A DNA stretch of 64,000 bases from Candidatus Omnitrophota bacterium (GTDB taxonomy: Bacteria; Omnitrophota; Gorgyraeia; Gygaellales; Profunditerraquicolaceae): positions 20,243 to 84,242 of the forward strand of contig JACQXK010000004.1 of the NCBI GenBank assembly GCA_016208765.1, in the 5' to 3' direction. The translations under genes were made by a program, and so were the position numbers. Of the stretch, positions 2,324 to 46,087 are shown piece after piece. How positions within the stretch are numbered: position 1 is the stretch's first letter; the number at the start of each line of letters is the position of its first letter. The notes under the pieces were generated by a model, which had not been told where the DNA came from, did not search any database, and saw only the letters and a program-made list of their open reading frames with translations.

Positions 2324-3250
2324 CTAAGGAATAAAGCTATTTAATATCTTCAGGTTTGTTTCCTCGTTAACATCATTCACAGCTAAAGAAGATAAATCCT
2401 CAGCAGTAACATCCTTTGGATGATCCAGGCGGGAAATAATTGCCTTAAGTTTTCCGGAAACAACAGCCGGAGAATATTCACCGGTAATATCAACTCCAAT
2501 GATTTCGCAATTCTTATTAATTATTCGCAAGATCAATAATAACTTATCCAATGAGAACAAACCCTGTTCCCAATTAGTCAGGGCAAATTCCTGCGTAAGG
2601 CAATCCTTATCAATTGATATATATATTTTCTTAGTCGGTAAACTATTTAAAATTGAAAGTATAAATTCTCCAATATTCTTATCTCTTAATTCTTGCCAGA
2701 GGATTTTAGTTCTCATAACCCCTTTCTTAGAAGTCAGAGAATGATTCTCTGGGACTTGGCGAAAGAAAACCGTAGTCGGTTCATGCATATATGGGTAAAT
2801 CTCCAAACGGTTATTTTTCAGGCTGGATAAATTCCCTGTTTGAATATTCCAAGTTGAAATATCATTTGAAGAAACCCCTAATAAGACACATTTTTGGATA
2901 CGTTTATTTTTCAATGCTTCAGTTACCCACGATCCGCAACCATAACGGGGAGGAAGGATGTCCCAATCAGGATGGAAATCAAAAACAATCACGCAAAAAT
3001 CTTCGTCAAACTGATTCAGTAAAACACTGCTTATGTGGTGAAAATCCCCGGAACCCAATAAATTAATACAATTCCGATCTAAACTGCCAAGCCTTGCTTC
3101 AATTTCATTCTTTGTTCTATGGTTCATCCACAATCTGGCGCGGCGAGCCAAATCTTTAAAATCAATAATTTTTGGCTGATATAAAGAAAGGAGTCTCTGC
3201 TGGCTTACAACAGAATCGTCAAAATTTAATAAATGGATAGTTTTACTCAA
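2324..3250 (-). CDS. Arginase/deacetylase-fold metal-dependent hydrolase (ureohydrolase- or HDAC-like, divergent)
   Basis: Motifs GSGDFHH, DFHPDWD and SIDKDCL correspond to the metal-binding D/H clusters of the arginase/deacetylase superfamily. A 4-bp overlap with the upstream aminotransferase implies an operon. Confidence 0.45.
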   Translation of the reverse strand: MSKTIHLLNFDDSVVSQQRLLSLYQPKIIDFKDLARRARLWMNHRTKNEIEARLGSLDRNCINLLGSGDFHHISSVLLNQFDEDFCVIVFDFHPDWDILPPRYGCGSWVTEALKNKRIQKCVLLGVSSNDISTWNIQTGNLSSLKNNRLEIYPYMHEPTTVFFRQVPENHSLTSKKGVMRTKILWQELRDKNIGEFILSILNSLPTKKIYISIDKDCLTQEFALTNWEQGLFSLDKLLLILRIINKNCEIIGVDITGEYSPAVVSGKLKAIISRLDHPKDVTAEDLSSLAVNDVNEETNLKILNSFIP

Positions 3251-4671
3251 GAAGTCTTTTTTAGTGCCTTAGAAAGTGCCTCTTCAAAAAGCTCAACCGC
3301 TAAATCTATTTCTTTTTCAGTAATATAGAATGAAGGGGCGATAGTAAAACAGTTCTTGTAATATCCTCCTATATCAAGAATCAAGCCACGCCTCTTTCCT
3401 CCAACACTTAATTTCCCATCCAGGCCTATGTTGGCAATTGTATCCGCAAGCTCTCTGTTAGGAGTATACCCGTCCTTTTGGCACATCTCTATCCTCAATG
3501 CCAAACCCAATGCATCAACATCCCCCATTTGAGGGTACTTTTTCTGAAGTTTCTTAAGACGAGAGAGAAAATAACGGCCTTTCCTGGGAATTAAATCGGC
3601 AAAGTTAGACTCCTCTATTAATTTCATCACCTCTAACCCGGCTGCCGTACCCAGAGGGTTTGAAGAAAAAGTTGAATGAGTAGAACCCGGAGGGAAAACA
3701 TCCGGTGAAATAAGTTTCTCTTTAGCCCAAATCCCAGCGATAGAATTTAAACCGTTAGTTAAGGCTTTTCCGAAAACAATAATATCAGGAGTCACGTTAA
3801 AATGTTCAATGCCCCAGAACTTTCCTGTCCGGTAAAATCCCATTTGTATCTCGTCATCAACAAGAAGAATATTATACCTATCTAAAATTTCTTTTAACCC
3901 GGAGAAATAATCTTGCGGGGGGACAATATATCCTCCGGTTCCCTGAATCGATTCAATATAAAAAGCGGCAAATTCACATTTATTGTTCTTCTTGTTAACC
4001 ACGCCATAATATTCTGTTTCAAAAAGCCTCTCAAATTGTTTTAAACAATATAAGTCGCAAAAATCTCTTTTCTTGTCATACGGGCAGCGAAAACAATAAG
4101 GAAACGGCACAAACAATGCCCTATCACCAAAATGGCCAAAGCGCTCTCTGTAACGAAAACTAGATGTAATGGCAGAAACAGCTAATGTCCTTCCATGATA
4201 GCCCCCCATGAAAGCAAACACAAGGTTTCTCCCAGAACAATTTCTTACCAACTTCAAAGAATCTTCATTTGACTGCGATCCTCCCACATTAAAATGCACC
4301 CTTCCCTTTTCCTCAAAAGTCGTTTCTGAACGATGGCATATCTTTGTGGCTAACTGCACTTTTTCTTCGTGGATATACTGACAGGCAAGCTGAGGGAGGA
4401 TATCAATCTGCTTCTTTAATGCCCTGTTAAGGCGTTTATTTTTATACCCAAAGTTGCAGGCGGAATACCACATCTGGAGATCAAGGTATTGAGTTCCTTC
4501 CCTATCATATAAATAAATACCATCTGCTGACTTAAAAACATTCGGCTTCTCTGAATAATGCACCGTATCTCCCCAGGAACAATATTTTGCTTCCAAGGCC
4601 AAAAGATCATCAGTGCCATTAATTTCTTTTGGTTTAGCTGCTGCAAGTTTTGCGGCCTGTTTTATTCCCAT
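3247..4671 (-). CDS. Class-III (fold-type I) PLP-dependent aminotransferase
   Basis: LLVDDEIQMGFYRTGKFWG...DIIVFGKALTNG contains the class-III signature with the PLP lysine. Length 474 aa. Confidence 0.8.
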   Translation of the reverse strand: MGIKQAAKLAAAKPKEINGTDDLLALEAKYCSWGDTVHYSEKPNVFKSADGIYLYDREGTQYLDLQMWYSACNFGYKNKRLNRALKKQIDILPQLACQYIHEEKVQLATKICHRSETTFEEKGRVHFNVGGSQSNEDSLKLVRNCSGRNLVFAFMGGYHGRTLAVSAITSSFRYRERFGHFGDRALFVPFPYCFRCPYDKKRDFCDLYCLKQFERLFETEYYGVVNKKNNKCEFAAFYIESIQGTGGYIVPPQDYFSGLKEILDRYNILLVDDEIQMGFYRTGKFWGIEHFNVTPDIIVFGKALTNGLNSIAGIWAKEKLISPDVFPPGSTHSTFSSNPLGTAAGLEVMKLIEESNFADLIPRKGRYFLSRLKKLQKKYPQMGDVDALGLALRIEMCQKDGYTPNRELADTIANIGLDGKLSVGGKRRGLILDIGGYYKNCFTIAPSFYITEKEIDLAVELFEEALSKALKKTS

Positions 4672-4753
4672 TTAAACTCCTTTTAATAAATTTATACACA
4701 TCGTTTAAATTTTTATAAGGCATGCAGTTAAGTTTATTATTCCTGCAATACTC

Positions 4754-5341
4754 TCACAGGCTGTCTTTGGCAAAAACAATATCAGCGTATTTTGCCGGAC
4801 AGATATCAGAACGGCCATCCCCAATGTATATAATTATAGAATTTTTAAAACTATTTGCCAAGAGATTTTTTGTCTTGCAGTGCGCGCAAATACTGCATTT
4901 TTTTGCCTGATAAGGGAACTGCGGAATGAGCCTGTTCCTGGATAACTCTAACTTATTAGAATAAACCTTTAACCCTTTAATGTAATTATGTTTTAAGATA
5001 CTCTTTAAGATATAATCAAAATTATCGCTTAGTACCGCAGACTTTATTTTCGCTTCTTTAAGGAATTTCACCAGGCGATTAAAATAAGGGTCAATTTTTA
5101 TACCGGAAAGATATTCATCAAGGTCTCTTTTTGTAATACGAATTCCCTGAAGCTGGCCGTGAAGGCACTTAAGAGAGCCGATCTTACCCTCCTGCCACTG
5201 TTTTTCCAGTTCAATCCAGCGTTTATTGCTGGAAAATAACGGGAGAATATTATCAAGGACATCACAGGAAGCTATGGTATTATCAAAATCAAAAAATACC
5301 GCACATTGGCTTGCTGAAAATTTAGGCAATTTTCTTTCCAT
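4754..5341 (-). CDS. HAD-IB family phosphatase (MtnX/PSP-like)
   Basis: DxD motif FDFDNTI near the N-terminus, a C-terminal GDGRSD motif, and a CxxC...C cluster typical of MtnX-like HADs. Confidence 0.65.
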   Translation of the reverse strand: MERKLPKFSASQCAVFFDFDNTIASCDVLDNILPLFSSNKRWIELEKQWQEGKIGSLKCLHGQLQGIRITKRDLDEYLSGIKIDPYFNRLVKFLKEAKIKSAVLSDNFDYILKSILKHNYIKGLKVYSNKLELSRNRLIPQFPYQAKKCSICAHCKTKNLLANSFKNSIIIYIGDGRSDICPAKYADIVFAKDSL

Positions 5342-5969
5342 AAATAAAAACTGGAGTGTCTTTCTTTGTTAAATATCTAAAGTATGTGCGTTTACCGGCA
5401 AACAATTGGCAAAGGCCCTGTTTAACAAAAAATTCAGCTGAATGTTCAGACATGGTCGCAAGTTGCACTGCTTTAACATTGTGCGCTTGTAAATAATCAA
5501 AATATGCCTGTATTAATTTTGAGCCTATACCAGAATGCCTGAATCCCGCGGCTAAATTAATATGTAAAGTTGCCGGATAATCTTTGGAGAAATCAGGCAT
5601 CTTAAACTCACCGTTAAAAATACTTTTTAACAAATTTAAGAAAAAAATATGGTTTTTCTTTTTAAAGAAAACACCTTTAAGAAAAGCGTAAATTAATAAA
5701 GCGGGAAAAATCCCAAACAGGAATTTCTTTGCTAAAACACGGGTATCTTTGGCACCGATAAGATAACCCACAACCTTACCGCCTGACTCAGCTACAAAAC
5801 AAGATTCCGGTTCATAATCAGTAAAATACCGTGTAAGAAAATCAGCAAGAACATCCTGCCCTTCAAAAAAAATGCCGGCAGGCTCTCCCATAAAAGCCGT
5901 ATCCCAGGAAATCTTTCTTACACTATCACGGTCAGGCTTTTGATAATGCCTGATTACAGCTTCTTCCAT
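5322..5969 (-). CDS. GNAT family N-acetyltransferase with a hydrophobic insertion
   Basis: FRHSGIGSKLI matches the R/QxxGxG/A acetyl-CoA binding motif. Overlaps the HAD gene by 20 bp. Confidence 0.6.
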   Translation of the reverse strand: MEEAVIRHYQKPDRDSVRKISWDTAFMGEPAGIFFEGQDVLADFLTRYFTDYEPESCFVAESGGKVVGYLIGAKDTRVLAKKFLFGIFPALLIYAFLKGVFFKKKNHIFFLNLLKSIFNGEFKMPDFSKDYPATLHINLAAGFRHSGIGSKLIQAYFDYLQAHNVKAVQLATMSEHSAEFFVKQGLCQLFAGKRTYFRYLTKKDTPVFIYGKKIA

Positions 5970-5986
5970 ATCATATTCGCTTTCTC

Positions 5987-6022
5987 AAAAAAAGGTGCCC
6001 CTTTAAGGGGACACCTTTTTAA
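5987..6022 (-). terminator. Intrinsic terminator hairpin after thi4 (bidirectional form: A-tract, stem, T-tract)
   Basis: aaaaaaaGGTGCCCCtttaAGGGGACACCtttttt lies immediately 3' of the thi4 stop. Confidence 0.55.
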
Positions 6023-6047: not shown

Positions 6048-6821
6048 TTATAGTTTCTTCAACAGATCATCTGCAACCTTGCGGCCGGATAACAACATCC
6101 CGCCAAAAATCGGGCCCATGCGCGGCCCGCCAAAAACAGCATTAGCGCACATACCGCAGGTGTATAAACCGGGAGCTACTTCCCTGGAATTTCTTACAAT
6201 TGTCTCTTCTCCTACCTCTGCCCACATGGAATTCTCTCCCATTACCTTGCCGGTTTTTGTATTTAACTTCAATCCGGATTTTCTTTCTGCAATACGCACT
6301 ACTTCTGCCGCATGGCCTGTGGCGTCAATAACCATTTTTGCGCGCATGGTGATAGGGTCAACATGAAGATTGGCAATTTCCACCGCCGTCCAGTTTAAAA
6401 CTAACCCTGCAATACGCCCTTTTCTAATCATCACATCTTCTGCGCTTAAAAGGTTAAAAATCTTAACCCCTTGCTTGATTGTTTTAGAGCAAATTGTAGA
6501 AACCGCCTCTACTGAATCTGCCAGATAATAGCCCTTTTCATACAAGCGGGTGCTAACATCAAACTCATTGAGGATTCGCCGGGCCTTTTCCTGCACAACA
6601 ATTTCATTAAACATAATCCCGCCGCCCCACATACCTCCTCCAACTGAAAGCTTGCGCTCAAAAATAACAACTCGCTTCCCTTTTTTTGCCAGATAATACG
6701 CGCAGCACATACCAGCCGGCCCTGCGCCTACAATAGCCACATCCACATCAAGCGCATCCAGAAGTTTTTTATTATAAGACTCAATTATTGCCCTTGAAAT
6801 TTTAATGTCATCTAATTGCAT
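6048..6821 (-). CDS. thi4: Thiazole synthase, Thi4 family
   Basis: [21 protein letters not shown]...[14 protein letters not shown]...ATGHAAEV...[15 protein letters not shown]. This is the classic Thi4 FAD/NAD-fold motif set. Confidence 0.85.
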
Positions 6822-6823
6822 GA

Positions 6824-7411
6824 TTAACCCTCCAGTTTTTTAATTGTAACTTTTTTTACGCCTTCCTTAACCATTCTCTTAATTGCATCTTCTGAATCAT
6901 TGGGTTTTAAGTTTACTCCTTTTATCGCATCCATCAGAATATTTACCTTAAAACCGTGCTTTAGCGCATCATGGGCAGTGAATTTAACACAATAATCTGT
7001 GGCAAGGCCTGCAATATAAATTTCTTTAACCTTAAAGAAATCCAACAACTTCTCTAAACTCATCCCCCGTTCATCTTCTGCCTGGAATGACGAATAACTG
7101 TCTTTCTTGGGATCAAGGCCTTTATACAAATAAATTGCTCCCTTTGGTAATTTCAGCTTCGGATGGAATGCTGCGCCCGGAGTATTCTGGACACAATGCA
7201 CAGGCCACACCCCGCCGAAATCCTTAAAATGTTTGCTTCTTAGAGGATGCCAATCACGGGTTGCGAAAACAAAGGATTCTTTTTTGGAGAAAAACTTCAG
7301 GTACCTGTTAACTACCGGAATGATTTTATCTGCCTCAGGAATACCCAAGGCCCCGCCGGGACAAAAATCATTCTGCACGTCCACAACTAACAACGCCTTT
7401 TTTGCTTTCAT
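6824..7411 (-). CDS. pncA: Nicotinamidase/pyrazinamidase (isochorismatase fold)
   Basis: [40 protein letters not shown] and GLATDYCV (catalytic Cys) align motif-for-motif with PncA. Confidence 0.8.
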
Positions 7412-7556
7412 AAAAAAACCCTATGCCTAAAAACATAGGGGAAACTTGTATCACCTCTCTTCCTACGCTGGCATTACCCAGATCAGGTTATTAGGGTAAT
7501 CTGCTTTACGCAGAACTCTCAGGCCGCTCTACGACCTCCCCTTACAATATTATTCT
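7412..7556 (-). promoter_or_regulatory. TPP riboswitch (THI element) with expression-platform hairpin abutting the pncA start
   Basis: Minus-strand read: GGGGAGGUCGUAGAGCGGCCUGAGAGUUCUGCGUAAAGCAGAUUACCCUAAUAACCUGAUCUGGGUAAUGCCAGCGUAGGAAGAGAGG. It carries the CUGAGA, ACCC and ACCUGAUCUGGnUAAUGCCAGCGUAGGAA hallmarks. It is followed by CCCUAUG-loop-CAUAGGG and U7 directly before the ATG. Confidence 0.9.
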
Positions 7557-7600
7557 ATCCTTAAAATAACTCTTGTCAATTTAAAATACGCGGTGAAATG

Positions 7601-7709: not shown

Positions 7710-8720
7710 TCAGAATACACCCGATATATCCGCCTGACAAAAAGAACACTTCCCGTTTATTATATGATTTTCTAAAATATCAAAACCCTCGCGCGCTACC
7801 AGCAATTTCTTGCACTGCGGGCAAAAAGTATCATCCCCTAATCCGGAAACATTTCCGATATAAATATAATTTAATCCTGCATTTCTTCCAAGGTCTCTGG
7901 CAAACAACAAAGTTTTCTCCGGAGTTGATTTATGGCCGCTAAATTTATAATCCGGATGAAAACGCGAAATATGCCAGGGGATATTCTTATCTACACCCGC
8001 GATAAACCCGGCAACACCGCTTAATTCCTGTTCAGAATCATTTTCCCCGGGAATTACCAAAGTAGTCACCTCCACCCAAATCCCTAATTCATGCATCAGG
8101 CGGATTGAATTTAATACAGGCTCAAGGCTTGCAGCGCATATTTCTTTATAAGAGCTATCTTTAAAGAATTTTAGATCTACATTTGCAGCATCTAAATATG
8201 GCCTAAGCATTTCAAGGCACTGGCTGGTCATATAGCCGTTAGTAACAAAAATGTTCTTCAAGCCTTTTTCTTTGGCAATTTTTGCAATGTTTAAAGCGTA
8301 CTCAAAGAATATTGTCGGCTCGGTATAAGTATAAGAAATACTTTTACAGTTGTTCTCTAGCGCAAGCCTAACCACGTCTTCCGGAGTGAGTTTCTCCCCG
8401 TAATTAAATAAACCCTCCCTTGCCGAAGCCTGAGAGATCTCCCAATTCTGGCAGAAAGAACAACGAAAATTGCAACCAATAGCAGCTATGGAAAAACTGG
8501 ATGACCCAGGAAGAAAATGATACAACGGCTTCTTTTCAACAGGATCCACGTGCGCAGAAACAACCTCGCCATAAACATGGGTATAAAGCGTTCCTTGAAT
8601 ATTCTGCCTTACACCGCAAAAACCAAATTTGCCCTCGGAGATTCTGCAATTATGATTGCAAAGATAACAATGCGTTAAATTATTTGCTAATTTTTTATAA
8701 AGCAGGGCTTCTTTGCGCAT
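7710..8720 (-). CDS. Radical SAM enzyme of the AmmeMemoRadiSam-system type (PflA-like)
   Basis: N-terminal Cys cluster CYLCNHNCRISEGKFGFCGVR, DPVEKKPLYHFLPGS and the CNFRCSFCQN CxxxCxxC motif. Confidence 0.6.
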   Translation of the reverse strand: MRKEALLYKKLANNLTHCYLCNHNCRISEGKFGFCGVRQNIQGTLYTHVYGEVVSAHVDPVEKKPLYHFLPGSSSFSIAAIGCNFRCSFCQNWEISQASAREGLFNYGEKLTPEDVVRLALENNCKSISYTYTEPTIFFEYALNIAKIAKEKGLKNIFVTNGYMTSQCLEMLRPYLDAANVDLKFFKDSSYKEICAASLEPVLNSIRLMHELGIWVEVTTLVIPGENDSEQELSGVAGFIAGVDKNIPWHISRFHPDYKFSGHKSTPEKTLLFARDLGRNAGLNYIYIGNVSGLGDDTFCPQCKKLLVAREGFDILENHIINGKCSFCQADISGVF

Positions 8721-8736
8721 ATTAAATTTAGAATGG

Positions 8737-9735
8737 CTAAATCCTGAACTCAGCTAATACTTTCTCTGGCGCCGGCTCAATCGGAGAGATTGCAAACTTA
8801 TCTGCTTTTGCCTGACGATATAGAATCTTCATTTCATTATTCACGCCGCGGTCGCAATAACGAGCAACAATACCACAAGACAAACTAATCGCTGAATCAT
8901 CAAACCTACCTCTGCCCAAAGCTGTTGGCCCAGCAACATCTTCTTGGGGCAGGAACAAATAATCATCGGCCTTCAAGAATTTTCCAAGCTGAACATTTTC
9001 ATTATGATTGCGCCCTACAATCAATTTAACGCCCGGGGCAAGGCGAAAATGCCTGCCTACCTTTAGCAATTCCACATTCTCCATATTTAATTCTTGATGA
9101 TTAATCAGATCTTTGAGCCTTTTTGCAAACTCCGGATTGGTCAAAAAACATCCTCCGGCCGGTTGGGCATATTTTTCTATTTTAAATCTCTTTGCCAAAG
9201 TAAACTGCCCTTTACGAGAACGGCCATTAAGCGCCAAAAGTTTTTCTCTTCTAATCCAACCTTTAATTTCGGGGATTGTCTCAGGCAGGACCAAAGCAGA
9301 AAGAGGGCGCAAGAGTAAACCATCTAAGCCGGACTTCTTCATAATCAGATCAAGCGCCTGCCTGTGCTGCGACATCGGGCGCTGGCCAACTACTTCTCCT
9401 GTAACTACAAATTCCGCCCCAAAAACCGGCAATAATTCCCGCGCCTTAGAAAGCATAAGTATTTTGCAATCAATACACGGATTCATGTTTGACCCAAATC
9501 CATATTCAGGACTGTGTAATAAACCCAGGAAATCAGCGCTAATATCAATGCTTTCCAGTTGCAACCCAAGATATTCTTTTATCAAAGAACCTGTATTTTG
9601 TTTCTTACAAAATGGAATCTTAAAATTTAAAGGTATAACTTCTATTCCCTGCTCCTGAATTACTTTTGCGGCCAGAATGCTGTCCAGCCCTCCTGAAATC
9701 AAAGCCAGGGCGCGCATCTTAATGTAAAATACCAA
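8737..9735 (-). CDS. PP-loop ATP pyrophosphatase, ThiI/MnmA-like sulfurtransferase lacking a THUMP domain
   Basis: The SGGLDS PP-loop starts at residue ~13. NPCIDCK and TGEVVGQRPMSQ resemble the ThiI adenylation domain motif TGESLGQVASQ. Confidence 0.5.
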   Translation of the reverse strand: MVFYIKMRALALISGGLDSILAAKVIQEQGIEVIPLNFKIPFCKKQNTGSLIKEYLGLQLESIDISADFLGLLHSPEYGFGSNMNPCIDCKILMLSKARELLPVFGAEFVVTGEVVGQRPMSQHRQALDLIMKKSGLDGLLLRPLSALVLPETIPEIKGWIRREKLLALNGRSRKGQFTLAKRFKIEKYAQPAGGCFLTNPEFAKRLKDLINHQELNMENVELLKVGRHFRLAPGVKLIVGRNHNENVQLGKFLKADDYLFLPQEDVAGPTALGRGRFDDSAISLSCGIVARYCDRGVNNEMKILYRQAKADKFAISPIEPAPEKVLAEFRI

Positions 9736-11449
9736 AATTCAGGATTGTCCCGACAACAAGACTTGCCCCAATCATAATTGAGGTTGCCTTTAAAAGCTCT
9801 TTTGCCCCCAGTTCTTTCCATAAAACCACAAATGTGGCCACGCAGGGAAAAGATATCGCCAGTAATGTTGCAGCAATAAAAAGTTGTTTTGCCGATAATC
9901 CCAACGGGATCAGCATACCAACCGCAATATCTTTACGCAAAAACCCGATTACCAAAGCCACTACTGCATCCTTAGGCAAACCGAAAAGGCCCTGGATAAC
10001 AGGAGCAAATATCCCTGTTACAAAATCAAACAAATGAAAATACAATAACAGATTGATCATGGCCACGCCCAAAAGCACGATTGGAACAGCTTCAATTATA
10101 AACCCTTTGATACGAAAGAATAATTTTTGCGTAAATGCCCCAAACGGAGGAAATCTGTAAGGAGGAATTTCAAGCAATAATTCTGGGCTGTAGCCTTTTA
10201 AGAAATAATTTAATAATACTCCGGTAATAATCATAATTGAAAACAGCACCAGATAAACCCCTCCCACATAAAATCCGGAAAAACTTCCCAAAAGCCCAAA
10301 GATCATTGCCTGTAAAGGAACACATGGCACTCCTATAGAAATAAGCGTTGAGGCAATAAACCTTTCCCGTTTTGATTCAAGGGATCGTGTTGCTAAAATA
10401 CCAGGGACATTACAGCCAAAACCCAAGAGTACCGGGATGATCGCAAAACCGTGCAATCCAAGCCGGTGCAGTAGATTATCCAGCAATATGGCCAGGCGCG
10501 GCAAATAGCCGATATCTTCCAAGAGGCTTAAAACAAAATAAAAAGAGATAATATAAGGTAACACCATGGCAAATTCAATATAAGGCGCGGTTGTTAAAAC
10601 TCCCATTGACTGCTTAAAATCAATTTTTCCGTTAATCAGCTCTCCTACAACCAAATGGTGCAGAAAACTTCCCGGGGCCAAAGCAGAACTTAACTTTTCC
10701 AGGAACGGCTGGTAATGATTAAAGAAAAAAGGATCAAACACGCGGGTGATCAATCCCTCGCCTATAAAACGGACAATTTTAAAAGAAGTATAAATAACCG
10801 CGATTGATATGAATAACCCGCTTAACGGCCGGATAGAAGCGTCCTCAAGCATCTCCCTGAAACTATGATGCCTGTGAGTCAATTTCTGGGCACTGTCAAC
10901 AATCGTTCCGATTCTCTGCCAACGTGCTTCATGCGCCAATTTATTCTCAGTAAAAGGCTTTGCCTCTTTGAGCCTTTCCAACAAGAATTTAATTCCAACA
11001 CCTGTTACCGCGCAAGTAGGAACAACAGCCACGCCTAAAAGCTCCTCTAATTTCTTAAAGTCAATGTGAATACCGCGATGCTCGGTATCGTCGCACATGT
11101 TAAGGCAAACTATAACCGGGTACCCCTGTTCAATAAGCTGTAAAGTTAGAAACAGATTCCTCTCTAAATTAGTCGCATCAATAATATTAATTACGGCTGA
11201 TTCCTCCGGCAAAGATCCCTTTAAAAGGTTGACTGCCACCTCTTCTGCCTTTGAACTCGGCTCCAAAGAATAGGTTCCCGGCAAATCAATAACTTCAATT
11301 TTATCTTCTCCTAATTTCAAATACCCCTTTATTATTTCAACGGTTGTGCCGGGATAATTGGAAGAAATTACCTGCACGCCGGTTAGGCGCGAGAAAACAA
11401 CGCTTTTACCTACATTAGGATTGCCGATAAGAAACACTCTTTTGATCAT
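9719..11449 (-). CDS. feoB: Ferrous iron transporter FeoB (G-domain plus permease)
   Basis: GNPNVGKSVVFSRLTG...GTTVE G-motifs followed by a polytopic membrane domain. Confidence 0.85.
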   Translation of the reverse strand: MIKRVFLIGNPNVGKSVVFSRLTGVQVISSNYPGTTVEIIKGYLKLGEDKIEVIDLPGTYSLEPSSKAEEVAVNLLKGSLPEESAVINIIDATNLERNLFLTLQLIEQGYPVIVCLNMCDDTEHRGIHIDFKKLEELLGVAVVPTCAVTGVGIKFLLERLKEAKPFTENKLAHEARWQRIGTIVDSAQKLTHRHHSFREMLEDASIRPLSGLFISIAVIYTSFKIVRFIGEGLITRVFDPFFFNHYQPFLEKLSSALAPGSFLHHLVVGELINGKIDFKQSMGVLTTAPYIEFAMVLPYIISFYFVLSLLEDIGYLPRLAILLDNLLHRLGLHGFAIIPVLLGFGCNVPGILATRSLESKRERFIASTLISIGVPCVPLQAMIFGLLGSFSGFYVGGVYLVLFSIMIITGVLLNYFLKGYSPELLLEIPPYRFPPFGAFTQKLFFRIKGFIIEAVPIVLLGVAMINLLLYFHLFDFVTGIFAPVIQGLFGLPKDAVVALVIGFLRKDIAVGMLIPLGLSAKQLFIAATLLAISFPCVATFVVLWKELGAKELLKATSIMIGASLVVGTILNFGILH

Positions 11450-35252: not shown

Positions 35253-36581
35253 TTACCCCAAGGCCGTGTATTGCTTGCCGTCGCCTAAAGGATTAAGCCA
35301 GCGCTTGATCTTAAGAGCAGATTTGGTTTCTTTTAAATCTATTTTTTCTTTCTTGTCCTGAGGAAAAACAACTTCAACCTTGGGAGAAAAAATATCATCT
35401 TCATTCTCTTCTCTTACTATCGCTATCCGCGAATCAGAAAGCTCAAGCAATGTGCCCACCGGCCAGACACCTATTATCCTGAAAAATTTGTCCAAAAGCT
35501 CCGGGTGAAAAAACGCCCCTTTTTCTTTCATCATAATTTCATAGATCATGTCCGGAGGATAATCATTTTTATAAGACCTTCTTTGAGAAAGGGCGTCATA
35601 AACATCACAGATACAAACGATCATAGAAGCAACATGCAATCGGTGGCTAAAAGCTAACTTTGGATACCCTGATAAATCATACCTTAAGTGATGTTCAAAA
35701 CATACCACCGCCGGCAGAATTCCAAGCGTACCTGCATACCTCAACATAATCTCTGTGCCGGCAAGGACATGGCTCCTGACATTTTGCCATTCCTCTTCGT
35801 TTAATACACCCGGTTTTCTGATAATTTTACGGGAAATGTAAATCTTTCCAATATCATGAAAAAGAGCAGCCGTGCCGATATCTATTGAATCTGCTTTTGA
35901 AAAACCAAATTTTACAGAAAAATACATTGAAAGCACTGCTGTATTTAACATGTGGGTAAAACTGCTTGTATCGTACCTTTTTACTGTGGCAAGATTTAAA
36001 AGTTCCTGGTATCGGCCAACAAGCCCTTCCATCACATCATTAATAGTATGACGCAGTAAAAGCGTATTAACCTCTTTTTGCTCAAGTATAGCCTCCAAGG
36101 GGCCGGACAATTTATCTAAAGTACCCCTGTAGTCGGCAAGGTTTAACCCCTTATCAACATCAGCGCCGGCCGCGGCTTTAATCTTTCCAACAATAATATT
36201 TTCCACACCTGAATTTTCCAGTAGCTCCTGCATCTGTGCCTTATTTTCGCCTTTAGGCATAAGCAAGCAATTGATAAATTTAACCAGCTCATCAGCTGCT
36301 ACCTGCCTGCGGATCTCTATTCTTTCAACACCCTGCTGGGCTAAAAATAAAATCATCTGTTTAAGAACCTTGCTCAATTCAAAAAATATTTCTTTCTGAA
36401 AGATCAATTCTTCGCCGACAATTCCCATAACAAGAGGATCATGTAACTTTAAGGCCTCCTGCAAACTGGCATAAGCCTTCTCAAGCGCCTTTTTAAACTG
36501 CGGGTGCCACTCCGAATAAAGCCGCGCTGTCTGCAAAACAGAAAACAAATCTTTAAATGAATTTTCAACTATTTCGTTCAT
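35253..36581 (-). CDS. HD-GYP domain protein (c-di-GMP phosphodiesterase class) with an N-terminal uncharacterised domain
   Basis: HD motif ALFHDIGK and HHLRYDLSGYP. Confidence 0.8.
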   Translation of the reverse strand: MNEIVENSFKDLFSVLQTARLYSEWHPQFKKALEKAYASLQEALKLHDPLVMGIVGEELIFQKEIFFELSKVLKQMILFLAQQGVERIEIRRQVAADELVKFINCLLMPKGENKAQMQELLENSGVENIIVGKIKAAAGADVDKGLNLADYRGTLDKLSGPLEAILEQKEVNTLLLRHTINDVMEGLVGRYQELLNLATVKRYDTSSFTHMLNTAVLSMYFSVKFGFSKADSIDIGTAALFHDIGKIYISRKIIRKPGVLNEEEWQNVRSHVLAGTEIMLRYAGTLGILPAVVCFEHHLRYDLSGYPKLAFSHRLHVASMIVCICDVYDALSQRRSYKNDYPPDMIYEIMMKEKGAFFHPELLDKFFRIIGVWPVGTLLELSDSRIAIVREENEDDIFSPKVEVVFPQDKKEKIDLKETKSALKIKRWLNPLGDGKQYTALG

Positions 36582-38499
36582 GTAAATTTTTTAAGGCCTC
36601 TTTTGCCTTCTTTCTTAATCCGCTATTCCAAAAAAACGGCCTCTTTGAAAGAATCTCTAAATATTTCTCCAGCCCGGCAAAATTCAATTTCTCTGCTATT
36701 GCCATATTTTCAAGAATAAGTTCATTCTTGGTGCCAAAGGGGCTGTTAATCAAAAGAATTTTATCTAACACAGTTTCTCTCTGGGAATCATTTCCGGATA
36801 AAACTGCTAACGCCTCTTTACGCAACGAAGCATTTTCAAGCTTTAACACCGAAAACAAAAAATCTCTATTTAAGGAAGAAACATCCTTGAGCGATTGCAG
36901 GACTTCTCTTTTTATTACATTATTGGGAAATGAAAAAATAAACCTCTTGATTTCAAAGGAAACGGAGGAATCAACATATTCAAGGCTGCTTAGGAACTTA
37001 TGCAAAAAGTCAAGATCAGTTTGCTTGCGGCCAAGCTGCTGAAAAACCAAGGATAAACTACCGGGAAACAATCCTAAAAGCAACTTTACCGAAAAATGGT
37101 TAACTTTCCCTTCTAAAAATATCTGATTTAAATAATATTCAATGTTAAAAGAGCTCTTCTCTATGCCTTTAACCAAGTATGCAAGATTTTCCGGCAAGGC
37201 CTCATCAAAAACCGCCTTCTCCGTAAAACTCGCAATTTTCCCGGCGATATCTTCAAAAGGTTTATTTAATCCGTTTTCCCGATTCTTTTTTTTGTGAACA
37301 AGCTTCAAGATAAGCCTCAAATGATCAAAGTTCTTTTCTGCGATCAGGCGGTCGCATTCCTCTGAAAGGTATTTTAAAGCCTGCGCCAATTTATCGTCGT
37401 TATCTTCCATACTAACGGTATTTAAAAGCACAAAAAAGAAATTTTCCTGCAAGGCCTTGCGGTCAAAAACAAAATCAGTGTCCTGCGCCTGTTGCCGGGA
37501 TAAAGATGAAAAAACATGCCGGTAGAATTCAGGCAAAAACACAGTTTCAGGATTATCAAAAAGCTCCCGGATTTTCTTTCTTATTTTCGGATTATCCTGC
37601 AGAATCTTTGCGCTTTTTGCTTTTTCTTCCAGGCTCATCGCAATGCCATTGTGCATTTTGACATCAACAAGCTGATAAAATACCTTGAAACTTAAAGAAT
37701 CAAATTTATCATTATTGACAATTTCTTCCCAAAGAAACCCGGAGAAATCTTCTTTACCTAAATACCCCAGGAGCTCTTTAAACTTGCCTAATTTATTTTC
37801 TTCAGAAATATCTTTATCACGGAGTATCAGCCTAAAAAGATCCTTGGTGCATTCAAGAAATTTGTCCTTGTCTTTATCTTTTAAATAAGAAAGAAAGTTG
37901 TAAACACTCTGCCTTAATTCTTCATCTTTATATAGATCCGAGATTTTAAAACGGGTGATAATAGCATTGAAGTTACCGGCAATTTCATCTATCTTGCTCC
38001 GGCTTTCTTGCTTAACCGCACTTCCAAATAAATAAGCCCAGATGTCTTTGGCTTGCTCTCCGGAGTCTTTTAAAAGCTCAGAATAATCTAATTCTTCAAT
38101 AACGATTGAACTGCCTGCAGGATTTTCTGACGGCAAACCGAGGCGCCCCTGTTTTAATGCTTCTTTTATGGGAAGAGATATTTTATTCAGAAAATCTATC
38201 AGCTGGTCTTGTGTCAGGCCGCGCCTAAACTCTACACTTTTAATCTTATGCAAATGCATTAATTGCGCCAGTTCCACATATAGAGGTGAATTTTGATAAG
38301 ATTTTACACCGATAAGAATAGACTTGGGCGTAATATTAATTTTTAAAACAGGAATTAACTGCAGCAGGTTATCTAATTGTAATTTAAAGGCTGCGGCGGA
38401 TTTAATAAAATAAGGATGGGTCTTGGGATAGGCCGAGGCGTTATTAATGACAATACGCAGGCCCTTAAAGAAATCTATCAGGGCTTGGTCTTTATCCAT
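36565..38499 (-). CDS. Large alpha-helical hypothetical protein whose N-terminus resembles the N-domain of the adjacent HD-GYP protein
   Basis: 644 aa with no known catalytic motifs. N-terminal ...AYPKTHPYFIK... compares with the HD-GYP N-terminal ...LYSEWHPQFKK... Overlaps the downstream gene by 17 bp. Confidence 0.45.
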   Translation of the reverse strand: MDKDQALIDFFKGLRIVINNASAYPKTHPYFIKSAAAFKLQLDNLLQLIPVLKINITPKSILIGVKSYQNSPLYVELAQLMHLHKIKSVEFRRGLTQDQLIDFLNKISLPIKEALKQGRLGLPSENPAGSSIVIEELDYSELLKDSGEQAKDIWAYLFGSAVKQESRSKIDEIAGNFNAIITRFKISDLYKDEELRQSVYNFLSYLKDKDKDKFLECTKDLFRLILRDKDISEENKLGKFKELLGYLGKEDFSGFLWEEIVNNDKFDSLSFKVFYQLVDVKMHNGIAMSLEEKAKSAKILQDNPKIRKKIRELFDNPETVFLPEFYRHVFSSLSRQQAQDTDFVFDRKALQENFFFVLLNTVSMEDNDDKLAQALKYLSEECDRLIAEKNFDHLRLILKLVHKKKNRENGLNKPFEDIAGKIASFTEKAVFDEALPENLAYLVKGIEKSSFNIEYYLNQIFLEGKVNHFSVKLLLGLFPGSLSLVFQQLGRKQTDLDFLHKFLSSLEYVDSSVSFEIKRFIFSFPNNVIKREVLQSLKDVSSLNRDFLFSVLKLENASLRKEALAVLSGNDSQRETVLDKILLINSPFGTKNELILENMAIAEKLNFAGLEKYLEILSKRPFFWNSGLRKKAKEALKNLHERNS

Positions 38500-39248: not shown

Positions 39249-42200
39249 TTAGATTGAATCAATAATTAGTGATACTTTCATTAAATCCTCATCACTTTCC
39301 ACGCTATTTGCTTCATCCAACTTGTAAGTCTTAACCACAGCTAAAGCCAAATCTTGAACGTGGCGCGACAACTCTTTTCTCTGAATACATGAGCTTGCCA
39401 CCATTGCAAACCTCTGGGAATTCGGCCTGATCCCTGCTTCAAGCATCTTGTTTATCTGACGCAGTTCATCATCAATATCCATATTCCTATCTGCCTGCGG
39501 CAACTGCAGGTTCAGCTTTGCAAAATTTCCCATAGGTTGGGCGATGATATTAATGGCACGAAAATCTATACCGCCTACACTGCTATTCTTTGCTTCTACC
39601 GCCGAAGAAGCAGTATCTCTAAGATAAGCCTGGAGAAAATCGCACAGCTCTGACATTGGTTCTGTAAAGGCACGAGCATCCGGATGTTTTCCTTCATTTT
39701 TAATATTGTATTTTATTTCCCGTATACAGGGAAAAAATTGAGTAGAGATTAACCAACGGAGTTTTGACTCCATATTAACTCCACCAAAATTAACTCCCCT
39801 GTCTTTTCCTAATTGAAATACAAGTGCACTCAATAAACCATCTTCTAAAAAGGAATCGAGATTATCGGGAAAATGCCGGCCAAATTGGATAGCGGCCTTT
39901 ATGAGAATAACTACATCGCGATTAGTAACTTGTTCATCTTGAGAGGGCATTTTAACAAGCCTGCTTAGCCATTGCTCAAAAATTCGTATGATACTGTCCC
40001 GGTACAACCAAGATTCTTTATTCATCATGTGCCTATCAAGAATCGTAGGCACAGCCTGAATCATCTCATCAGCAAATTCTCTACTTTGCTGCTGTGCAAA
40101 CTTATCAATTCCATCCTTAAACACTCCAGGTGTTTCATAATATTTTTTTACTCTTTGATAATATTTTTCAACTTCTCCGGGAGTAGGCGAACGGCCAAAA
40201 TCAACAAAAAACCTATGAACCAAAGGCACAAGATACAATTTCGCAAATTCAGCTCTTTGTTCCTGATTCCAATATTTTGTATCTGGATTATTAAGAGTTT
40301 GAACAAGTATTATGGACAGCTTTAATATACCATCAGGTGACTGGAAAGTTTTTTCATCGTCTACCTCCAATAACGAAGAGACTACATCCTCTCCCGCTTC
40401 CGCCGCCGAGCTGGCATATTGCTGCTCGTAAATTTGCTTAGACCGGGCAAAAACCACCATTAACCTTGCCAAATTCTTTATTTCTGTAGCATCCGGGACA
40501 AACATTGTAACTGATTCTGTGTTTACTTCGCTAAACCTGTCAGCATAAGCCATTGCATAAATTCCGTCTACTTCTGAAGGATACAAACCATGCAAATAAA
40601 CAGGGACATTGCCATCAGATTTAATCAAAATCTCAGTTTCCTTTACCTTATTCAGATCCTTTACCGAAGTCATTATTACCTCAAAAGACAAATCCACTCC
40701 GCCTGCAGTCAACTGCCGGCTCTTATGCTGTTCTCCGGGGCAAAAACCAAAACGGTCAAATCCTAAAAATGCTAAATATTTCTTGAAGATTTCTGTAAGG
40801 CTGTTCCTATCCTCATAAAGTACAACGTTAAAAGTTTTTCCTGAATTGGCCGCCTTCAGGCGTAAGGCTGCCAATTGTCTTGCAGTTTGTTCTTCAGTTT
40901 GGCTTAATCTTACTTGAGCGGAAGACTGTAAAATTAAATCTAATAAACGTTTCATTTGTTTCTCTTTATCTTCCATCTGGGAAAATTCATTTAGCGGAAC
41001 TCCCAGCGGTTCGCTTTGCCCCATTTGTTCAAGCTGCTTAAGAAACCTGTGTATATGCTCTAACCTAACCGTGCTCACATCCACAGGTGTTGACGGCTCT
41101 TTTAATAACCTTGTCAGATCGTTTAGAAGGCTACGCGTTGTATCTCCGGAAACAAAACCATCTCCATTACGTAAGCCATTGGCACGCAAAAGAGCTCCGT
41201 CAGCTACAAGCATTTCGTTTTCAACATATGTATGCTCTCTCTGCGCCTCATCTCTAACCGGAAGACCATTTACATCTTTATTTCCTTTTCTGTTAAACGC
41301 GTTAAATCCTCTTCCTTCACGCACCAATGCCTTGGCACCCTCAACATCAGGCTGGCGAAAAGGAGTTATATCATTAAAAATCTCATGCAATTTCTTTAAT
41401 GCCTCAAACTGCGCATCACCCTGTTTTGGGCCCTGCATAATTTTGACAATATTCGCTGGATTAGAAAGATCAACCTCCTGCAAAGACTTATCGGCTTTCT
41501 GTTTTTCCCTGAGTACCTCAGCAGTAGTCAACATGCCATATCTAACAGTAAGGTTTTCCACAAACTGGACGTACTTACCCAATTCTCTTTCAGAGATAGA
41601 TTTCATCTTGTATCTAATCACTAAATCATTCGGCCCTGCACCAACATCTATTGGCTCCTGGCCTTCAAGATCAATCACAAAATAAGCCTTTCTTCCAATA
41701 CCAGGAATGTTACTAAACGCCCGCTTTACATGCGCAGAGTCAAAATTGTATGTCTGCAAGCCCTGCGGCATGCCCATCTTTCTTCCCTTACCTGTACTCT
41801 CCGGTATAAGCTGCTCTAAAAGCTCAGTTGGCCGCGAAAAAACCAAACCATTGGGTGCAGTAATTACAAAATGATGAATATCTCTCCGGTAAAGCTCTTC
41901 GGCAAATTTTGCGCTCTCTGAGGTACCGGCTCTTTGCTCCTGGGCTTCTTCTCTGGCGCCTGCTAATATCTCTTCTGCGTCCATGCCTAAAAGCACAGCA
42001 TAAGTCAAAGAAGCAGGGCTTACTCCTTGAAACCTGCCTCCTAAATTATCCAACATCAAAATTGAAGCCACTTCATTTTCGTTACCGTCAAAAAGCTGCT
42101 TTAAGAAGCCTTTTCTGAATTGATCCAAACGGCTGCCTTTTTTCTGCTCTTGATCATATTTACCGGTAGTCATGATCATATTACTAAATACAGTTTTAAG

Positions 42201-44777: not shown

Positions 44778-46087
44778 ATCCCCGACCTGTCCTGAAACAG
44801 CAGAGGAGGCTGCTTCATCAGTACCACAGAAAATGTATTTATCGTAGTTATTCCATTATTTGCTATTACAGAACTTCCAGAACCCTGGATTAATACAGGG
44901 TCACTGCCTATTTGCGCTGGAGTTCCAGTTAAGAGTTCTGTGCCGGGTGTGTGTAATAAAATATTTGTAATTCCTGAACTTGCCCGCCCAACCCCGGAAA
45001 CCGGGCTTGAGCCAAACTGGATTCCACCACTAAAATAGCTTCTAATGACTTGGCCGGAAAGAGTATTTACCGGAACCTTCAAATTATATTCCCCGTCTTT
45101 AAATGACTTCTGGTAATCTTTAAAATAAGTGTTTTTTGACCAAACCTGGGCTGAGGTTAAACCTCGCAAATCAGACTTATTAATAAGGTAAGAGTACGTG
45201 CCGGATTTACCAGTAAAATTTGATTTAAACCAACGCGCCAAAACCAAAGAATAAAACACCTGCCTAAGGTTGGCGTACTTCCTGGAGGTATTCACCATTT
45301 TTGTCAGCTTAGGCAGGATAGATTGTTTGATAAGCTCGGTGGAGTATTTATTGAGTTCTTTTAACCTTGGGTCAGTAAAGGAATAATTTGTTGAACCTGG
45401 GACAGTCCCCTTCGGGGACAGTCCCTTCAAGTAATCGTCCTCCAACATCACCTTCATTGTCGCCTTATAAATATAGACGCTGTCATTGCTCTGACGGATA
45501 ATAACTTCATTCGGAGTGATCCAGGGGCGGGTTAAAGTGGGGATGGTAATTTGCTCTGACCCTAAATGCTCTTCTGCTTTCTTGTAAAGTTTATCCCAAT
45601 AGGCTTTGCCTTCCGGAGTTTCAGGGGAAGTTAATCTTGCAGTATCTTTCTTTAACTCAAGGTCAGTCTCAAGGAAGATCTTTCCTATATCAGTCTTTGC
45701 CAAATCATCGTCAATAATATTATCTGCGGCATCCGGGCGAAGATTTACCCAAAATTTGTCATCCGGTAAGGTTAAACCAACAAGAAAATAGCGCAAGAGC
45801 TCCTGGGTTGCACTAGTTTTAGAGATTGCTTCACCACCTGCGGTGGTTCGCAATGACGAACCTTCGCTTCCTTTGTCTAAAAGAACCTTGAATTCATTGC
45901 TAAGGCTATTATAGGAAAAGTAGCGTAGGTGCGCTGGGCAGAATTTGTCTGTGGAAAAAGATTGCTGCATCCCTTTAAAATACCCCGCCATATTAAGCTG
46001 AGCTGCAATTTGGGCAAAACCAGCCTGTTGAAAAATAAGTGAAATTGAGAGAATTATGGCGGCGATTCGGTTAAGTTTCTTAGACAT
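44717..46087 (-). CDS. Secreted hypothetical protein (456 aa)
   Basis: Signal peptide MSKKLNRIAAIILSISLIFQQAGFAQ. No recognisable domains. Its 3' end overlaps the start of the giant gene by 61 bp. Confidence 0.45.
   Translation of the reverse strand: MSKKLNRIAAIILSISLIFQQAGFAQIAAQLNMAGYFKGMQQSFSTDKFCPAHLRYFSYNSLSNEFKVLLDKGSEGSSLRTTAGGEAISKTSATQELLRYFLVGLTLPDDKFWVNLRPDAADNIIDDDLAKTDIGKIFLETDLELKKDTARLTSPETPEGKAYWDKLYKKAEEHLGSEQITIPTLTRPWITPNEVIIRQSNDSVYIYKATMKVMLEDDYLKGLSPKGTVPGSTNYSFTDPRLKELNKYSTELIKQSILPKLTKMVNTSRKYANLRQVFYSLVLARWFKSNFTGKSGTYSYLINKSDLRGLTSAQVWSKNTYFKDYQKSFKDGEYNLKVPVNTLSGQVIRSYFSGGIQFGSSPVSGVGRASSGITNILLHTPGTELLTGTPAQIGSDPVLIQGSGSSVIANNGITTINTFSVVLMKQPPLLFQDRSGICLGIMIIGIPAKNLWILNL

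Follow-up and report, generated by a model that had tools for sequence, protein, structure and literature searches.

On the minus strand of a 64-kb stretch of Candidatus Omnitrophota DNA (contig JACQXK010000004.1; the whole stretch is called the window here), a nicotinamidase gene, pncA, and a thiazole synthase gene, thi4, lie behind a thiamine pyrophosphate (TPP) riboswitch. Read from 7580 to 5985, the order is promoter-like site, riboswitch, hairpin with a run of seven uridines (U7), pncA, thi4 and terminator (Table 1). An earlier reading of the letters alone (the original prediction) had named a THI-box, pncA, thi4 and a terminator on this strand, and each was found at or near its predicted place. 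It had further proposed that TPP control of pncA serves to couple nicotinamide salvage to thiamine demand.

Sites like the one at the head of the unit occur in the region at chance level (5 found against 4.6 expected). The thi4 start lies 2 nt past the pncA stop codon, and its GGAGGG Shine-Dalgarno sequence lies within the 3' end of pncA. An internal thi4 promoter was rejected, as intragenic promoter-like matches are at chance level and the gap between the genes is 2 nt. The two genes are probably co-transcribed as a single unit. The terminator that closes it (~6020..5987) appears bidirectional, and the next gene, which encodes a GNAT protein, starts at 5969.

Table 1. Features of the riboswitch, pncA and thi4 unit in the window, and TPP aptamers at three related loci (L numbers)
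Feature	Position	Strand	Basis
Promoter-like sigma-70 site, TTGACA-16-TAGAAT	7552..7579	-	11/12 consensus matches; consensus match only
TPP riboswitch aptamer (THI element)	7443..7552	-	RF00059, 68.1 bits
Expression platform: hairpin and U7 abutting the pncA AUG	7412..7440	-	sequence, folding
pncA, nicotinamidase/pyrazinamidase, 195 amino acids	6824..7411	-	PF00857, NF008623
thi4, non-Cys (His153) sulfide-dependent ADP-thiazole synthase, 257 amino acids	6048..6821	-	PF01946, TIGR00292
Intrinsic terminator closing the operon	~5987..6020	-	AAAAAGGUGUCCCCUUAAAGGGGCACCUUUUUUU; A5, 8-bp stem with one bulge, U7
Omnitrophota TPP aptamers narrowly under the Rfam gathering score	L004 5302-5416, L029 4847-4960, L037 4828-4940		lineage model, ~95-105 bits

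The riboswitch was confirmed by Rfam. RF00059 matched at 7552..7443 with 68.1 bits (gathering score 54.3; E = 3e-11), covering model positions 1-105 of 105 without truncation, and was the sole Rfam match across the window. With an Omnitrophota lineage model (R1) the aptamer scored 97.9 bits (7548..7455). CUGAGA of the pyrimidine-sensor helix and the THI-box ACCUGAUCUGGGUAAUGCCAGCGUAGGAA are legible in it, the conserved THI-box ACCUGAUCUGGAUAAUGCCAGCG of the pyrophosphate-sensor helix is present, and the motifs CCUGAGAG and CCUGAUCUGGGUAAUGCCAGCGUAGG have zero mismatches to the THI-box search pattern. The aptamer occupies the same-strand 5' leader of a thiamine gene and is followed by an expression platform. 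In this platform a hairpin at 7440..7419 (arms CCCUAUGUU and GGCAUAGGG) is followed by U7 at 7418..7412, which runs directly into the pncA ATG at 7411, as had been predicted. The stem has 9 bp, including two G-U pairs, rather than the 7 bp first read.

Folding was used to examine how the leader might switch. The terminator hairpin alone gave -11.1 kcal/mol. When the leader was folded only as far as the terminator loop, the lowest-energy structure (-39.1 kcal/mol) paired AGGGG of the aptamer (7542..7538) with CCCCU of the terminator 5' arm (7442..7438). The complete leader folded into aptamer plus terminator at -43.8 to -45.3 kcal/mol, with a z-score of -2.6 against shuffled sequences. Constrained folding thus predicts a canonical transcription-OFF TPP switch of ordinary design. 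When TPP is scarce, AGGGG and CCCCU would form an anti-terminator that allows read-through into pncA and thi4. With TPP bound, AGGGG would be kept within the aptamer, the 9-bp hairpin and U7 would form, and transcription would end just before the pncA start codon. A block of translation is also possible because the 3' arm of the hairpin contains the sole Shine-Dalgarno-like sequence for pncA (AGGG, 7 nt upstream of the AUG); the riboswitch probably masks this ribosome-binding site as well. Homologous CCCT(T)ATG hairpins occur downstream of aptamers at other Omnitrophota loci.

The PncA protein looks like a genuine nicotinamidase. It matched Pfam Isochorismatase (PF00857, 6.5e-30) and the NCBIfam nicotinamidase/pyrazinamidase equivalog NF008623 (196.7 bits, cutoff 174), and other isochorismatase-family equivalogs fell far under their own cutoffs. 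The closest solved structure is P. horikoshii PncA (1IM5/1ILW, E = 1e-55), to which close orthologues of the window protein are 47-49% identical. Catalytic residues D11, K97 and C141 and metal ligands D53, H55 and H72 aligned with the P. horikoshii motifs, and the protein carries the motif WPxHCVQxTxGA. All six residues are kept in the 27 Omnitrophota orthologues, D11 being missing solely in one truncated sequence. The window protein is identical to an NCBI entry (P0001) named 'bifunctional nicotinamidase/pyrazinamidase [Ca. Omnitrophica]'. In triad, metal site and approximate length it resembles the PncA proteins of P. horikoshii (1IM5), M. tuberculosis (3PL1) and A. baumannii (2WT9). What is unusual is only where its gene lies, next to thi4 and downstream of a TPP riboswitch. 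At the level of sequence, then, the textbook nicotinamidase of the original prediction stands.

The isochorismatase superfamily is functionally diverse. A PncA-like protein acting on some other amide, perhaps from thiamine or thiazole metabolism, would explain why the gene precedes thi4 at 25 loci and heads a thiM-thiE operon at another (L169, see below). This is very improbable given the equivalog score above cutoff, the match and identity to P. horikoshii PncA, and the complete D-K-C triad, D-H-H metal site and WPxHCVQxTxGA motif.

The second gene product matched Pfam Thi4 (PF01946, 1.7e-83) and scored 329.1 bits with TIGR00292, sulfide-dependent ADP-thiazole synthase (cutoff 148.3). Thiazole synthesis by Thi4 sets nicotinamide free. 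The closest structures are Thermovibrio ammonificans THI4 (TaTHI4; 7RK0, 9e-95), to which the window protein is ~58% identical, and the methanogen structures 6HK1 and 4Y4N/4Y4M. His153, in the motif ANLHVDP, lines up with TaTHI4 Met158, the residue found at the sacrificial-Cys position (PMC8454699), and also with the His in the LHVDP/LHIDP motif of the methanogen enzymes. The metal ligands D155 and H170 match Asp160 and His175 in TaTHI4. Because His153 lies at the sacrificial-Cys position, the window Thi4 is assigned by sequence to the non-suicide, catalytic type that depends on sulfide and metal. The original prediction had left suicide and catalytic types to be told apart at the position of yeast Cys205, which was placed here through the TaTHI4 Met158 alignment. 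His is the commonest Cys substitute, found in 171/199 non-Cys THI4s, and non-Cys THI4 builds thiazole from nicotinamide adenine dinucleotide (NAD), glycine and sulfide (PMC8454699). With its LHVDP His, its Asp and His ligands and its metal-transport neighbours, the window Thi4 is like characterized non-Cys THI4s (4Y4N/6HK1, 7RK0; PMC8454699).

About 170 related loci were sampled overall, and each was searched over ~4-5 kb per side. The Thi4-side sample comprised 80 species-representative genomes with a close Thi4, all from Omnitrophota because the peptide patterns used in the scan came from the Omnitrophota-specific Thi4 N-terminus. A second set of 80 diverse Thi4 loci came from a metagenome scan led by T. 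ammonificans THI4, the sequence of which was reconstructed from a PDB alignment. PncA-family genes within 4 kb of these loci were sought with four diverse PncA queries.

At Rfam gathering thresholds, a TPP riboswitch was found at 1/16 pncA-thi4 loci (L022) and at 0/5 other pncA loci. This near-absence in relatives was rejected as a false negative, since a THI-box regular expression, the lineage model and Rfam E-value mode found aptamers of 52-54 bits. Gathering-threshold scans undercount because genuine aptamers score just below the 54.3-bit cutoff. The THI-box pattern search together with a lineage covariance model built from 34 Omnitrophota aptamers placed an aptamer at 52/84 non-redundant loci. 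Because a lineage model recovers the sequences used to build it, a subset of the loci was rechecked independently in Rfam E-value mode. L057, L046 and L015 gave 58-64 bits, and L029, L004 and L037 gave 54.1, 53.6 and 52.3 bits with E near 1e-7. Comparative work in Omnitrophota needs a lineage-specific model or E-value mode, as the Rfam threshold narrowly misses genuine TPP riboswitches. In the diverse 80-locus Thi4 set, at least 45 loci carry a TPP aptamer.

48/84 loci have the riboswitch directly before thi4 and no pncA, mostly with 60-110 nt from the aptamer end to the thi4 ATG. Sixteen have pncA followed by thi4 and no riboswitch, and another 16 have neither pncA nor riboswitch, several of these with a radical S-adenosylmethionine (radical-SAM) gene followed by thi4. 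The order pncA, riboswitch, thi4 occurs at 2/84 loci (L004 and L029), and the order riboswitch, pncA, thi4 also at 2/84, the window and L022. Among the 52 riboswitch-bearing Omnitrophota thi4 loci, pncA is absent from 48, outside the controlled unit in two and inside it in two. A PagL gene on the opposite strand further separates pncA from thi4 at L004, placing the two in separate transcription units. The window shares the aptamer family, the terminator-type OFF platform and a thi4 gene in the controlled transcript with other bacterial TPP riboswitch-thi4 and thiamine operons. Unlike them, it has pncA between riboswitch and thi4, an order seen at 2 of ~100 riboswitch-bearing thi4 loci.

Several of the sampled loci carried further Thi4 or riboswitch variants. 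A tandem, divergent Thi4 paralogue, 35-39% identical to the window protein, is encoded at L042 (5156-6157), L047 (4155-4910) and L079 (5869-6615), and the L042 paralogue has a TPP aptamer of its own. The aptamers of L042, L047, L050, L059, L061 and L088 have long insertions, apparently in P3, that extend them to 130-177 nt from ~96 nt. L037 also has a c-di-GMP-I-GGC riboswitch at 5897-5977, ~130 nt downstream of thi4 (RF03167, 60.9 bits; gathering score 59).

Viewed from pncA, the pair is tight. Thi4-side sampling found pncA immediately upstream of thi4 in 16/80 genomes. In PncA-side sampling, where orthologues were 67-75% identical, thi4 adjoined pncA in 8/10 contexts. Among 27 non-redundant pncA loci, thi4 is downstream in 25, with a spacing of -19 to +18 nt in 20. 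A riboswitch lies ahead of pncA at two of the 27 and downstream of it at two; none was found within ~4-5 kb at the other 23. The loci without an aptamer include seven that came from the metagenome and PncA-side sampling rather than from the 84 (L115, L123, L143 and L169-L172). pncA therefore does not recur as a member of the TPP regulon, the aptamer lying upstream at 2/27 pncA loci.

The linkage is also narrow in range. Adjacency of pncA and thi4 without a riboswitch was seen in ~20 further species, all in one Omnitrophota subclade. No PncA-family gene lay within 4 kb at any of the 62 loci whose Thi4 is at most 67% identical to that of the window. In the metagenome set 3/80 loci had one (L115, L123 and L143), and these are Omnitrophota-type with Thi4 79-81% identical. 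L115 and L123 share a block of ThiI-like and radical-SAM genes with the window, and the L143 contig (1.9 kb) is too short to show it. The original prediction had staked its reading on linkage in other genomes with riboswitch-controlled thi4. That linkage is largely missing, with pncA absent from 48/52 such loci in Omnitrophota and no PncA-family gene near any of the 62 distant Thi4 loci.

Nor is thi4 the only constant neighbour of pncA. A radical-SAM gene is upstream of pncA at 20/22 loci with enough upstream sequence, compared with 25/27 for thi4 downstream, so pncA is tied to its upstream neighbour as tightly as to thi4. The flanks are syntenic too, with FeoB, ThiI-like and radical-SAM genes upstream and GNAT, HAD and aminotransferase genes downstream. 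Either gene can be missing alone. L171 shows the window order minus thi4, the GNAT, HAD phosphatase and aminotransferase genes coming straight after pncA. At L169 (4001-6002), which has neither thi4 nor a TPP aptamer, pncA, thiM and thiE form an operon in that order, their stop and start codons overlapping; permease genes of the ArsB/CitMHS and YHS-ArsP types come next. At L010, L019, L025 and L033 the radical-SAM gene is followed directly by thi4, without pncA. Gene neighbourhood thus links pncA with thi4 neither in independent lineages nor above the level of the surrounding synteny.

These results suggest that pncA is probably a passenger, a long-standing syntenic neighbour that has fallen behind the riboswitch, and that thi4 is the real regulatory target. 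Local rearrangement would have moved pncA behind the riboswitch in the lineage of the window and, in a separate event, in L022. PncA may hydrolyse the nicotinamide released by Thi4 as an opportunistic benefit rather than a selected coupling. All 33 open reading frames of at least 230 amino acids lie on the minus strand across the window, and adjacency on one strand therefore says little about shared function here. Thiamine is made at a very low flux relative to the NAD pool, and little would be gained by salvaging the nicotinamide from Thi4. Genes for NAD and thiamine biosynthesis occur in more than 75% of Omnitrophota species (PMC10066038). In a single genome, a riboswitch followed by an unexpected gene seems meaningful; ~170 loci show a syntenic neighbour that came under the riboswitch in two lineages.

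The history of the arrangement was examined with neighbour-joining trees of Thi4 and PncA, which are short proteins and not strongly resolved. The window and L022 are non-sisters in both trees. The window falls beside L013, which lacks a riboswitch, and L022 beside L009 in the Thi4 tree or L035/L086 in the PncA tree, likewise without one. PncA of the window is 65% identical to that of L022 and 74% identical to those of riboswitch-less L013 and L001. The window and L022 aptamers are 74% identical, no closer to one another than each is to aptamers of other arrangements. The layout at L022 is like that of the window, with a promoter-like site (TTGACA-17-TAAAAT), aptamer, hairpin and T6, Shine-Dalgarno sequence, and pncA overlapping thi4. 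At L035 (2085-2150) a promoter-like TTGACA and a hairpin CCCTAATTTGCGGCAAAGGG with T6 lie directly before pncA, resembling the window and L022 platforms. A search of the 296-nt gap between the radical-SAM gene and pncA of L035 for a degraded aptamer, with filters off, gave a best score of 3.3 bits and no aptamer. The promoter-like site and hairpin may nevertheless be the relic of a lost riboswitch. Either the order riboswitch, pncA, thi4 had at least two origins, or it is the older state and was lost repeatedly. On both routes, selection for keeping pncA under TPP control has evidently been weak.

Several observations weigh against treating pncA as a passenger. The tight adjacency (-19 to +18 nt at 20 loci) persists while PncA identity falls to ~60-75%, and such lasting spacing could reflect selection for co-expression. 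The chemistry is sound, in that an enzyme that releases nicotinamide lies beside a nicotinamidase. The riboswitch precedes pncA in two lineages that are non-sisters, as far as the weakly resolved trees tell, and the relic-like leader of L035 implies that this order may once have been commoner and was later lost. The pncA-thiM-thiE operon of L169 is some link to thiamine genes that survives without thi4.

From these same observations it can be argued that the coupling is adaptive, PncA clearing the nicotinamide from Thi4, by salvage to nicotinate or in relief of product inhibition, with co-transcription, and TPP control in two lineages, held by selection. Yeast Pnc1 relieves the inhibition of NAD-consuming Sir2 by nicotinamide, and by analogy a nicotinamidase might clear the product of another NAD-cleaving enzyme here. 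Unlike the Pnc1-Sir2 case, the link between PncA and Thi4 is known from gene order in one clade alone. As noted, Thi4 consumes NAD (PMC8454699); thi4 follows pncA at 25/27 loci (within 30 nt or overlapping at 20), and catalytic and metal residues are kept in all PncA orthologues. We nevertheless consider adaptive coupling doubtful. The linkage is confined to one clade, with pncA near none of the 62 distant Thi4 loci and none of the 48 riboswitch-thi4 loci of Omnitrophota. The riboswitch excludes pncA at L004 and L029, where the order is pncA, riboswitch, thi4, and at L004 the transcription units are separate. pncA is kept without thi4 (L171, L169) and thi4 without pncA, and the radical-SAM link is equally conserved. 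Among the window open reading frames of at least 230 amino acids, no pncB, nadD or nadE and no other thiamine gene was found, a negative that covers these large reading frames of the 64-kb window only. A published survey of non-Cys THI4 neighbourhoods contains no PncA and one PncB, read as supplying a nickel-pincer cofactor (PMC8454699).

The strongest form of this argument would make PncA a dedicated by-product scavenger for a catalytic Thi4 in one Omnitrophota subclade, serving to recycle nicotinamide or relieve product inhibition, and would make the window and L022 order the first case of a NAD-salvage enzyme in the TPP regulon. We think this unlikely. If true, it would mean that the nicotinamide left over from THI4-type thiazole synthesis is actively handled by cells and that a NAD-salvage gene has joined the TPP regulon, and it could be relevant to efforts to give crops a catalytic THI4 that is less costly than the suicide enzyme. 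Of the original prediction, the riboswitch, the pncA-thi4 pair, the nicotinamidase and the Thi4 family assignment hold. Selection of by-product coupling through TPP control is unsupported, as 2/52 riboswitch loci include pncA in the controlled unit.

For the most part the case is an ordinary one. No open-access paper was found that joins pncA with a TPP riboswitch, or a nicotinamidase with thiazole synthase in a relevant way, which agrees with the earlier remark that pncA is not known as a described member of this regulon. TPP riboswitches before thi4 are already standard, and non-Cys THI4 neighbourhoods have been surveyed (PMC8454699). The placement of pncA behind a TPP riboswitch appears to be undescribed, yet it is a variant of a familiar kind of operon that occurs sporadically in few lineages and adds no new principle of regulon organization.

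A different explanation places the function at the level of the block. pncA and thi4 would belong to a metal and sulfur module (FeoAB, ZIP, a ThiI-like PP-loop protein and an AmmeMemoRadiSam-type radical-SAM enzyme, with ArsP/YHS and Rrf2 proteins at some loci) that supplies metal, perhaps sulfur, to metal-dependent enzymes, and the riboswitch would be a secondary overlay. PncA requires Zn, Fe or Mn, and Thi4 requires Fe or another metal. The block is conserved over many species, and a YHS-domain permease and an Rrf2 regulator lie downstream at L001, L004 and L169. PncA activity is described as dependent on metal loading in one report (PMC6941528). Non-Cys THI4 genes cluster with genes for metal binding and transport, including the TRASH family (PMC8454699). 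The metal genes stressed in that survey are of cobalt/nickel and TRASH types, unlike the FeoAB and ZIP neighbours of the window, which are of iron and zinc types. The RNA-binding NFACT-R_2 domain of the ThiI-like protein suggests tRNA thiolation, most Omnitrophota thi4 genes lie outside the block, and long same-strand synteny is normal in the window genome. A block-level function is therefore improbable, and pncA as a syntenic passenger of a riboswitch-controlled thi4 remains the preferred explanation.

The flanking genes were also annotated. The block upstream of pncA (window 7710-11449, minus strand; also at L001, L004, L007, L170 and L172) consists of FeoA-FeoB, ThiI-like and radical-SAM genes, often with a ZIP gene. 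Its ThiI-like PP-loop protein (9735..8737) carries NFACT-R_2 as a C-terminal domain. The AmmeMemoRadiSam-type radical-SAM enzyme is encoded at 8720..7710, and no AMMECR1 or Memo partner was seen nearby. Downstream of thi4 (window 2324-5969, minus strand; also at L007, L069, L170 and L171) lies a cluster encoding a GNAT protein, an MtnX-like HAD-IB phosphatase, a class-III aminotransferase and an arginase-family-like protein.

Elsewhere in the window, neither of two minus-strand open reading frames, at 36565-38499 (644 amino acids) and 44717-46087 (456 amino acids), had a Pfam match at E <= 1e-5. A 2026 bioRxiv preprint describes very long proteins from Omnitrophota. A minus-strand open reading frame of 1842 amino acids lies at 39249-44777; Pfam phosphoglucomutase/phosphomannomutase domains I and II matched in its N-terminal ~300 residues only, leaving ~1500 residues unmatched.

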